From IMG/VR virus record IMGVR_UViG_2522572023_000006: a stretch of DNA of 50,140 nt; one strand, given 5' to 3'. This DNA comes from a virus (lineage: Duplodnaviria; Heunggongvirae; Uroviricota; Caudoviricetes). Below are positions 26,769-27,257 of this stretch, in pieces. Position numbers and translations under genes: made by a program. The number at the start of each line of letters is the position of its first letter. Position 1 is the first letter of the stretch. Under the pieces are notes generated by a model. That model saw only the letters and a list, made by a program, of their open reading frames with translations. It had not been told where the DNA came from and ran no database searches.

Positions 26769-26919
26769 ATCCCCCTCACCCCACCAGCCATGACAAAGTT
26801 AAGACGCGCCAGGCAGTGGAAAAGCAAATAGCAACCAGCATTAGTGAAAATGAAATGCCGACGATTACACAGAGGATCTTCGCCAGCGTTATGAGCTTGT
26901 CTGACATGCTTAATCCTCT

Positions 26920-27102
26920 TCACGATTTCAACGCAATGACCAGTTTTGCCAGCCCATACAGCATCGGAGACACAGCAATACCGACCGCCACCCACTTAAT
27001 AGCAAAAGCCAGCGCTCTGCTGACGTCATCAGTTACAGGCGCTTTCAGTTCAAGGCCGTTTTTCATAGTCAATCTCAACAGAATTCGTTTATACTTTCCC
27101 AT
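26920..27102 (-). CDS. Small membrane-anchored protein inside the lysis cassette
   Basis: 60-aa product from internal ATG with strong RBS (AAGGGAGAA); basic N-terminus and C-terminal TM helix (ALAFAIKWVAVGIAVSPMLYGLAKLVIAL); sits between endolysin and Rz. Confidence 0.45.
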   Translation of the reverse strand: MGKYKRILLRLTMKNGLELKAPVTDDVSRALAFAIKWVAVGIAVSPMLYGLAKLVIALKS

Positions 27103-27257
27103 GTTCTCCCTTGCCTTACTCAAGGTCAGAAACACAAAACCCCGTTTGCGGCCAACAAACGGGGTTTTACTTTTATTCACTTAGTTTTTGCCAGTTCGCA
27201 GGATTTCGTGTTATCCGCCAGTGTGAGCAAACCGCATTTTTCAGCAAAATATTCTGC

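Follow-up and report, generated by a model that had tools for sequence, protein, structure and literature searches.

The lysis cassette of the tailed-phage record IMGVR_UViG_2522572023_000006 (Caudoviricetes; the whole stretch of 50,140 nucleotides is referred to here as the window) contains two small genes, open reading frames (ORFs) A and B, between the endolysin gene R and the spanin gene Rz, and both are very probably genuine small membrane-protein cargo genes of the late operon. The R-Rz junction is a variable cargo slot, and A and B are optional cargo of this recombination-prone junction of lambdoid late operons. We are highly confident that these uncharacterised micro-proteins are widespread and already annotated cargo of the endolysin/spanin junction and no isolated curiosity: ORF-B is found before Rz in 276 phage records, and the A+B segment of 489 nucleotides (nt) is covered to at least 80% in 990 of 5426 complete E. 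coli genomes (approximately 18%), yet the annotation of both genes is function-less. A first-pass annotation made from the sequence alone had described one extra gene, of 60 codons, between an endolysin of the signal-anchor-release (SAR) type and Rz. This ORF is present and is a real gene by its ratio of nonsynonymous to synonymous substitution rates (dN/dS), but the gap between R and Rz, which is 489 nt long and coincides exactly with the interval 26769-27257 of that annotation, holds two small genes, together with a hairpin and approximately 85 nt of conserved non-coding DNA. Its features are as follows, where SD stands for the Shine-Dalgarno sequence.

26920-27102, minus strand: ORF-A, 60 amino acids (ATG at 27102, stop codon 26920-26922); phrog_1115; the same as RefSeq hypothetical protein WP_001303555.1 and as ECs_2740 of Sakai prophage Sp14
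27049-27096, minus strand: codons 3-18 of ORF-A, with near-frozen silent sites; the Met13 codon (27064-27066) lies inside
27103-27135, minus strand: leader of ORF-A, 33 nt, with the SD (AAGGGAG) partly in a small hairpin
27136-27168, both strands: G+C-rich terminator-like hairpin AAAACCCCGTTTG-loop-CAAACGGGGTTTT, with A and U tracts on either side (terminator scan)
27173-27257, minus strand: conserved non-coding stretch of about 85 nt directly downstream of R
26776-26907, minus strand: ORF-B, 43 amino acids; phrog_4906; the same as RefSeq hypothetical protein WP_001280929.1, ECs_5740 of Sakai Sp14 and ORF50 of BP-4795

Codon alignments of the E. coli and Salmonella copies of ORF-A gave pairwise dN/dS values of 0.06-0.24 at dS of 0.6-2.0, which is near saturation, and the protein matches phrog_1115, a function-less family, over its full length (residues 1-60, E = 6.6e-42). 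Because of this low dN/dS and this family match, ORF-A is more than a chance ORF. It also matches phrog_4493 and phrog_3246, both of which are labeled 'unknown function'. For ORF-B, dN/dS ranges from 0.1 to 0.6, with the N-terminal two-thirds well kept and the tail more variable, and the protein matches phrog_4906 (residues 1-43, E = 7.3e-24), another family of 'unknown function'. Judged by their patterns of substitution, both ORFs are real genes, and they are carried by the plaque-forming phages PhiR12 and PhiR5. The first-pass annotation had recognized no family for the 60-residue protein. That statement holds for Pfam, NCBIfam and PADLOC, since neither protein had a match in searches of these collections or of PDB sequences, but not beyond them, as both genes are RefSeq hypotheticals with PHROG matches. 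Membership in these PHROG and RefSeq families is direct at the sequence level, shows no difference from the families and provides a name without a function. Searches of the available literature library found no publication on either gene, whether as ECs2740 or by the WP accessions.

The translation of ORF-A is MGKYKRILLRLTMKNGLELKAPVTDDVSRALAFAIKWVAVGIAVSPMLYGLAKLVIALKS and its start is preceded by AAGGGAGAAC. The ribosome-binding site, the basic N-terminus and the C-terminal transmembrane (TM) helix described in the first pass could all be confirmed: the N-terminal flank carries +8/-3 charges, the TM helix is AFAIKWVAVGIAVSPMLYGLAKLVIALKS, and the best 19-residue Kyte-Doolittle window covers residues 38-56. 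AlphaFold2 predicted one long helix at residues 23-59 (pLDDT ~83), preceded by a loop and by a short, low-confidence helix at residues 3-14. In addition to a conserved MKNGLExxAP motif, five residues of the TM core (A34, I35, L48, Y49, and G50) are invariant and four others (W37, G41, S45, and P46) nearly so, a pattern more suggestive of a specific surface for helix packing than of a generic anchor. The family comprises 118 clusters, nearly all of them, where a source is named, from E. coli, Salmonella or E. marmotae, with one record labeled Pseudomonas aeruginosa, and it includes two C-terminal flavors, ...ALKS and ...RWW. An exhaustive profile search of 1.84 billion proteins returned 24 cluster representatives for ORF-A, all of the same narrow family, and no remote link to a known family. 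Among species-representative genomes, patterns derived from the profile yielded no confirmed relatives and the back-translated pattern of AFAIKWVAVG yielded unrelated Clostridia only; because neither scan returned relatives, the ORF-A family is taken to be absent from these representative genomes.

ORF-B begins with MSDKLITLAKILCVIVGISFSLMLVA, has its own SD (AGAGGA) and ends 7 nt before the start of Rz. Its mean Kyte-Doolittle hydropathy over residues 11-29 is 2.86, and we infer that A and B are both single-pass inner-membrane proteins. All named homologs of ORF-B come from E. coli, and Sakai Sp10 ECs_1966 is also a copy of B. One protein, P0081, was considered as a fusion of B and A, which would have been a Rosetta-stone hint of interaction. 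In it the frame of B switches to the frame of the overlapping A' ORF of phage 783R2; it is most simply explained as a frameshift in a single genome or a calling artefact, and it was dropped as evidence for interaction.

Over 4.1 kb, the window matches a prophage of E. coli O145:H28 RM12761/RM13516 with 100% identity, and DNA 100% identical to the A/B region is present in O157:H7 and O145:H28 chromosomes at the same lysozyme-Rz position. Among phage records ORF-A occurs in 14, and those with ORF-B are mostly Stx-converting phages, in which the arrangement is R-ant-B-Rz; in most Stx phages the slot is occupied by the antirepressor gene ant. The contents of the slot vary, and the following arrangements were observed.

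R - ant - B - Rz: BP-4795, Min27, P13803, Sakai Sp10, and Sp6 (retrieved only as far as B)
R - hairpin - A - B - Rz: the window, Sakai Sp14, PhiR12 phages, and many E. coli
R - hairpin - A - Rz, without B: Salmonella and some E. coli
R - ant - hairpin - A - Rz: Salmonella L017
R - hairpin - C - B - A' - A'' - Rz: phage 783R2, in which C, A' and A'' are A-like peptides
R overlapping Rz, slot empty: K-12 Qin

The non-coding stretch at 27173-27257, which includes CTGGCGGATAACACGAAATCC, is common to these phages whether A, ant or C follows, and a comparison of the window with BP-4795, 783R2, and PhiR12_1 shows it near-invariant until the differing cargo begins. Many E. coli matches to the 489-nt query span only this stretch beside the endolysin. 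Its Salmonella counterpart contains a perfect inverted repeat, GGCGGAT-N8-ATCCGCC. Several loci show further small genes of this kind. In 783R2 (L005, 1786-2349) the slot is a mini-gene array of C (~31 amino acids, A-like, ending ...IVAIKG), B, a 5'-truncated A and a 28-residue A-like peptide ending ...RWW, and two A-family genes stand in tandem in L021 (2356-2668) and in L022.

The cassette around the slot lies on the minus strand in the order holin, YdfR/DUF1327 gene, endolysin, 489-nt gap, and Rz with embedded Rz1, which matches the RefSeq annotation of the identical O157 locus:

28191-28406, minus strand: class II (S21-type) holin (PF04971, E = 4e-32)
27842-28186, minus strand: YdfR/DUF1327 gene, 114 amino acids (PF07041, E = 3.5e-45; phrog_406, a function-less family)
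27258-27791, minus strand: endolysin R, 177 amino acids, with a SAR-like N-terminal segment (PF00959, E = 1e-25; 'lysozyme' in RefSeq)
26301-26768, minus strand: Rz i-spanin (PF03245, E = 6e-49)
26363-26548, minus strand: Rz1 o-spanin embedded in Rz (PF06085, E = 1.7e-21)

The N-terminus of the endolysin is MNAKIRYGLSAAVLALIGAGASAP, which is followed by an E-x8-D-x5-T motif. The YdfR/DUF1327 gene is a second 'extra' gene of the cassette, at the holin/endolysin junction, and is also found in K-12 Qin (ydfR), BP-4795, and Sakai prophages.

The first-pass annotation had placed the small gene beside a SAR endolysin and proposed a comparison of S21-type cassettes; A is specific to neither. Most cassettes bearing A have class II holins with SAR-type endolysins. 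The identical Salmonella protein P0034 of the A family is encoded upstream of Rz in four cassettes of different make-up, one with a soluble GH19 endolysin and a lambda-S-type holin and others with class II holins, and in phiSTEC1575-Stx2k an A-like gene follows a soluble M15 endolysin. Upstream of Rz, A was found with three holin families and with SAR as well as soluble endolysins, which argues against a holin-specific or SAR-specific partner; A requires no particular holin or endolysin. What the A loci have in common is the late operon and, within lysis cassettes, a position immediately 5' of Rz in most retrieved loci. In these loci, from E. coli and Salmonella alike, A or B lies directly 5' of a PF03245 Rz gene with a gap of just 7-20 nt; the exceptions are L006, L019, and 783R2, the last with two A-like ORFs between B and Rz. 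Outside lysis cassettes, an A-family gene was found after tail-fibre/DUF4376 genes with terminators on both sides, and a tandem pair was found beside a SASA-domain gene at a prophage end; a DUF1353 neighbor was also seen. In L006 (phiSTEC1575-Stx2k), a 60-residue ORF at 2155-2337 with a lipoprotein-like signal (..FLLVGC) directly follows the A-like gene; the retrieved stretch has no annotated Rz-type gene, and the ORF could encode an o-spanin or another lipoprotein.

ORF-A appears to travel as a self-contained cassette consisting of a terminator hairpin, an SD-occluding leader and the ORF. The hairpin was found 30-65 nt upstream of the A start in 12 A-type loci, and also upstream of C in 783R2, with folding energies of -19 to -26 kcal/mol. 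Across loci it reads AAAACCCCG...CGGGGTTTT, with a U-rich tract after it, and the terminator scan reads it as an intrinsic terminator on both strands. Its outer stem is fixed and its inner stem varies with compensation, RNAalifold giving 14 pairs of which 6 show compensatory double changes. The ant-type phages are without the hairpin and diverge from the A-type phages exactly at its 5' edge, so that the hairpin belongs to the A cassette. The leader is approximately 90% identical between E. coli and Salmonella copies, in which silent coding sites differ at approximately 50%, and it is predicted to fold by pairing of CAAGG-GAGA (SD included) with UUCU-CCUUG; the initiation region of A as a whole has mRNA structure of ordinary stability (z = -0.13). 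A downstream terminator was seen among the A loci only in L011, and the copies in lysis cassettes have the terminator upstream.

A second constraint lies within the 5' coding region. In every pair of five lineages, codons 3-18 show silent differences at 0-2 of the 9-16 codons that encode the same amino acid, compared with 13-20 of 30-39 such codons in codons 19-60. The sequence has diverged on both sides of this island (the inner stem of the hairpin, a 30-nt Salmonella insertion, and the downstream codons), which means that the frozen island reflects constraint and not recent exchange. Met13 is near-invariant in the family and is preceded at 6-nt spacing by GAGG in relatives and by GAGA in the window. 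Since the frozen silent sites span both initiation regions and Met13 is near-invariant, a dual start is favored: translation probably begins at two overlapping starts, Met1 and Met13, and yields isoforms of 60 and 48 amino acids, of which the longer would carry four extra basic residues (three lysines and one arginine). The N-terminal extension is also kept as protein in divergent members (YRKxFRxRxSM). Different gene-calling pipelines call identical DNA as 60 or 48 amino acids; the 48-residue 'variants' of A were therefore rejected as a separate allele, being the same DNA called from the second ATG. In the Salmonella locus L008 (2975-3003; by alignment also L010 and L017-L020), a mini-ORF of 8 codons, MCREVCSL, begins at the ancestral ATG with its SD, and the TGA of this mini-ORF overlaps the GTG start of Salmonella ORF-A (GTGA). 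This arrangement suggests translational coupling of the Salmonella gene through a leader peptide.

With regard to function, we tentatively favor the reading that A and B are non-essential inner-membrane modulators acting in the lysis phase, although we hold it with less than even confidence. The late operons of lambdoid phages are read by Q-antiterminated polymerase, and A has no promoter-like site and a terminator directly upstream, so that it is probably made only by such polymerase; late-only transcription of A, B and Rz/Rz1 by it is likewise probable from the layout of the operon. According to this proposal, synthesis of A would depend on readthrough by Q-modified RNA polymerase from pR' and would fall late in lytic growth, alongside that of the holin, endolysin and spanins, and the upstream terminator would block leaky transcription and keep A silent in the lysogen. 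The two proteins might then tune the timing or the sharpness of the membrane step of lysis, in that their TM segments, which are conserved and rich in small residues, would make helix-helix contacts with another membrane protein. As partner we would guess Rz i-spanin, the most consistent genetic neighbor, or alternatively the class II holin. Direct comparison of TM segments did not single out a partner: neither A nor B resembles the TM domain (TMD) of Rz beyond shuffled sequences, B resembles neither the SAR domain of R nor the holin beyond shuffles, and A resembles the SAR domain weakly (214 of 5000 shuffles were as good). Nor do the two look like spanins themselves, as their extramembrane parts amount to at most ~28 residues, A lacks Cys and B lacks a lipobox. 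An i-spanin has an N-terminal TMD with a long coiled coil in the periplasm, and o- and u-spanins have a lipobox Cys.

Several observations weigh against a part in lysis. A is indifferent to holin and endolysin type, and one identical protein serves in four cassettes; A-family genes also follow tail-fibre/DUF4376 genes and occur at prophage ends (SASA, DUF1353); and the same slot holds ant, a non-lysis gene; all of this fits generic cargo equally well. Since lysis by lambda and Qin needs neither A nor B, a role in lysis could only be accessory. A crude consensus scan found no sigma-70-like site on the coding strand in 26200-28700, where a weak or non-sigma-70 promoter is possible, and the lysis role is a guess. 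The lysis role that the first-pass annotation had suggested is still the most economical reading, given that A has no promoter-like site of its own and lies behind a terminator in a Q-dependent late operon, but 'mobile late-operon cargo' describes A at least as well.

Non-lysis cargo is the chief alternative, a possibility nearly as likely as lysis modulation: A and B would be moron-like genes of the late operon, unrelated to lysis, that target a host inner-membrane protein in order to exclude superinfecting phages, to interfere with division or with a protease of the envelope, or to give the lysogen a fitness trait, and the R/Rz position would merely be a permissive recombination joint. The interchangeable contents of the slot (ant+B, A+B, A alone, the C/B/A'/A'' array, or nothing) speak for this alternative, as do the A-family genes after terminator-flanked tail-fibre/DUF4376 genes or in tandem by SASA/DUF1353 at a prophage end, and the independence of A from holin and endolysin type; moreover, the high specificity with which the TM segment is conserved suggests that A has a defined partner among proteins. 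Lambdoid morons, such as the HK97 gp15 exclusion protein and lambda bor/lom, are optional genes between conserved late genes and often encode small membrane proteins. A and B are moron-like in that they occupy a junction of conserved genes in some close relatives but not in others, and in L011 the A-family gene is flanked by terminators. However, classical morons have their own promoter and are expressed in the lysogen, whereas A is without a promoter-like site and has its terminator upstream rather than downstream in the lysis-cassette copies, which makes expression in the lysogen, and with it exclusion or conversion, look unlikely. The lack of a PADLOC match and the placement of A or B against Rz, across a gap of a few nucleotides in most retrieved lysis-cassette loci, also count against unrelated cargo.

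It is unlikely that ORF-A mimics TMD2 of the class II holin (pinholin) and co-assembles with it in trans as an antiholin or co-holin, with isoforms that differ in activity. Residues 36-51 of A (KWVAVGIAVSPMLYGL) align with TMD2 of the window holin (BLASTP E = 0.002; 22 of 5000 shuffles as good), most A-bearing cassettes pair a class II holin with a SAR-type endolysin, and there is the evidence for two starts that differ by four basic residues. Yet this comparison was picked post hoc among several TM segments, the profile-profile probability is 7% only, the Salmonella A proteins are unlike their cognate holins, and the same A protein accompanies a lambda-S-type holin; the apparent resemblance to pinholin TMD2 is a lead and not a finding. 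Dual-start holin/antiholin pairs are found in lambda (S107/S105) and phage 21 (S71/S68), and P1 has separate antiholins or extra holin-like genes (LydB, LydC and LydD). The dual-start holins share with A a small size, a place in the cassette and in the membrane, two in-frame starts differing in N-terminal positive charge, and RNA structure at the initiation region, in addition to the weak likeness of the A helix to TMD2. They differ in that A has one TM segment instead of two or three and starts 12 codons apart instead of 1-3, is not tied to one holin family and has no Pfam holin match (at E <= 1, none to the class II profiles PF04971 and PF16080). Instead of the pinholin architecture of two TMDs and a charged C-terminal tail, A ends four residues past its best hydrophobic window (...VIALKS). 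Equally improbable, in our estimate, is that A is a trans-acting component of the lysis clock, in which a tail-anchored protein in two isoforms of 60 and 48 residues, possibly of different topology, would use a TM helix rich in glycine and serine to mimic pinholin TMD2 and co-assemble with the holin, or to dock on the Rz TMD, and so set the moment of membrane failure, the terminator and the leader would gate its expression, and B would be a second, Rz-tied adaptor.

We give distinctly less weight to a type I toxin-antitoxin system, in which ORF-A would be the membrane toxin and an antisense RNA of ~70 nt, with a promoter on the opposite strand within codons 3-12, would run as far as the bidirectional hairpin and so cover both SD and start codon. 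The plus strand of the frozen island does carry a promoter-like TAGTCA-18-TATACT at 27066-27095, over exactly which the silent sites are frozen; its TATACT is invariant in 12 of 12 A loci, divergent ones included; a U-tract accompanies the hairpin on the plus strand as well, and folding of the predicted 85-nt RNA gives z = -4.3. Like type I toxins such as Hok, TisB, and ZorO (PMC2887945), A and B are hydrophobic peptides of at most 60 residues with one TM segment each, and A has an SD-occluding leader, a possible antisense transcript over the SD and, in some loci, tandem paralogue arrays, as some type I toxins have. On the other hand, promoter-like sites in the region are as numerous as expected from shuffles, the -10 corresponds to conserved K-Y-K codons and the -35 to the SD of Met13, so that other constraints explain the conservation, and no equivalent promoter-like site was found by eye in the related 783R2 cassette. 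The crude consensus scan found no promoter-like site for a toxin mRNA, no antisense RNA was detected, and A, which lies inside a polycistronic late operon, has no homology to known toxin families. Rfam searches of the slot gave nothing at the gathering threshold and, at E <= 10, terminator-driven noise only (including ohsC, E = 2.1), and Table S2 of PMC4104026 contains no orphan Hfq-bound RNA at the Sakai Sp14 locus (~2,692,050-2,692,130).

The least probable explanation, and a very doubtful one, is a releasin-like factor that helps the SAR endolysin to leave the membrane: although A, like the Mu gp25 releasin, is small and membrane-tethered with virtually nothing in the periplasm, lies just downstream of a SAR endolysin (gp25 is within a few genes of one), and can be likened to gp25 as a late-expressed accessory to the canonical lysis proteins, it has no DUF2730 or other sequence match to gp25, it also follows soluble GH19 and M15 endolysins, its cassettes already have holins, and its architecture is the opposite, with a C-terminal TMD of reversed polarity and a short cationic cytoplasmic part (~28 residues) instead of an N-terminal TMD and an anionic part of 73 residues. 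Gp25 (DUF2730) is described as an N-terminal TMD (N-out/C-in) followed by a cytoplasmic domain of ~70 residues (PMC9239132). The occurrence of A with soluble endolysins and these differences from a releasin also disfavor the roles in endolysin regulation or release that had been offered in the first pass.

If A and B, as we tentatively favor, tune the timing of lysis, they could influence phage burst and the release of Shiga toxin from induced Shiga toxin-producing E. coli, and they would constitute a new and very small class of accessory lysis proteins in a system regarded as well understood. If they are instead unrelated cargo, they provide easily testable conserved micro-proteins with a distinctive 'terminator-first' cassette design. 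Either way, the R-Rz junction should be annotated as a cargo slot and not be assumed empty.

Other elements of the prophage were noted in passing. Downstream of Rz, after an extremely A+T-rich spacer (25840-26020), lies a PerC/Pch-family regulator gene (25521-25835, minus strand; pchC in Sakai Sp14). Very strong orphan peaks, EcOnc10, EcOnc11, and EcOnc12, were reported by Tree et al. in Sp12, Sp10, and Sp9 using Hfq-CRAC (crosslinking and analysis of cDNA). Situated ~75 nt downstream of Rz, these peaks converge with the late operon (in L029, Sakai Sp10, at ~6320-6370 on the opposite strand), and the equivalent position in the window would be ~26180-26300 on the plus strand. The nearby Sakai Hfq-CRAC peaks were considered as an antisense RNA to A and rejected, as these three map downstream of Rz and EcOnc33 is internal to nanS-p. 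Upstream of the nanS-p-like esterase gene, the anti-GcvB small RNA (sRNA) AgvB (30557-30618, plus strand; 92.5 bits in Rfam) is back to back with STnc100 (30619-30827, minus strand; 175.6 bits), and the two are the pair of convergent sRNAs that has been described from prophages of enterohemorrhagic E. coli at the pR' moron site. Additional Rfam matches were obtained to the sok antitoxin RNA of the hok/sok type I toxin-antitoxin system (35378-35553, minus strand), to the DicF sRNA (44140-44191, plus strand), and to a tRNA (30947-31006, minus strand). Finally, the interval between the nanS-p-like esterase gene and the holin (28407-28555, minus strand) contains a terminator-like hairpin at 28473-28445, and a 2026 preprint reports that prophages of this type have the sRNA genes PasA/PasC between sialate esterase and holin.

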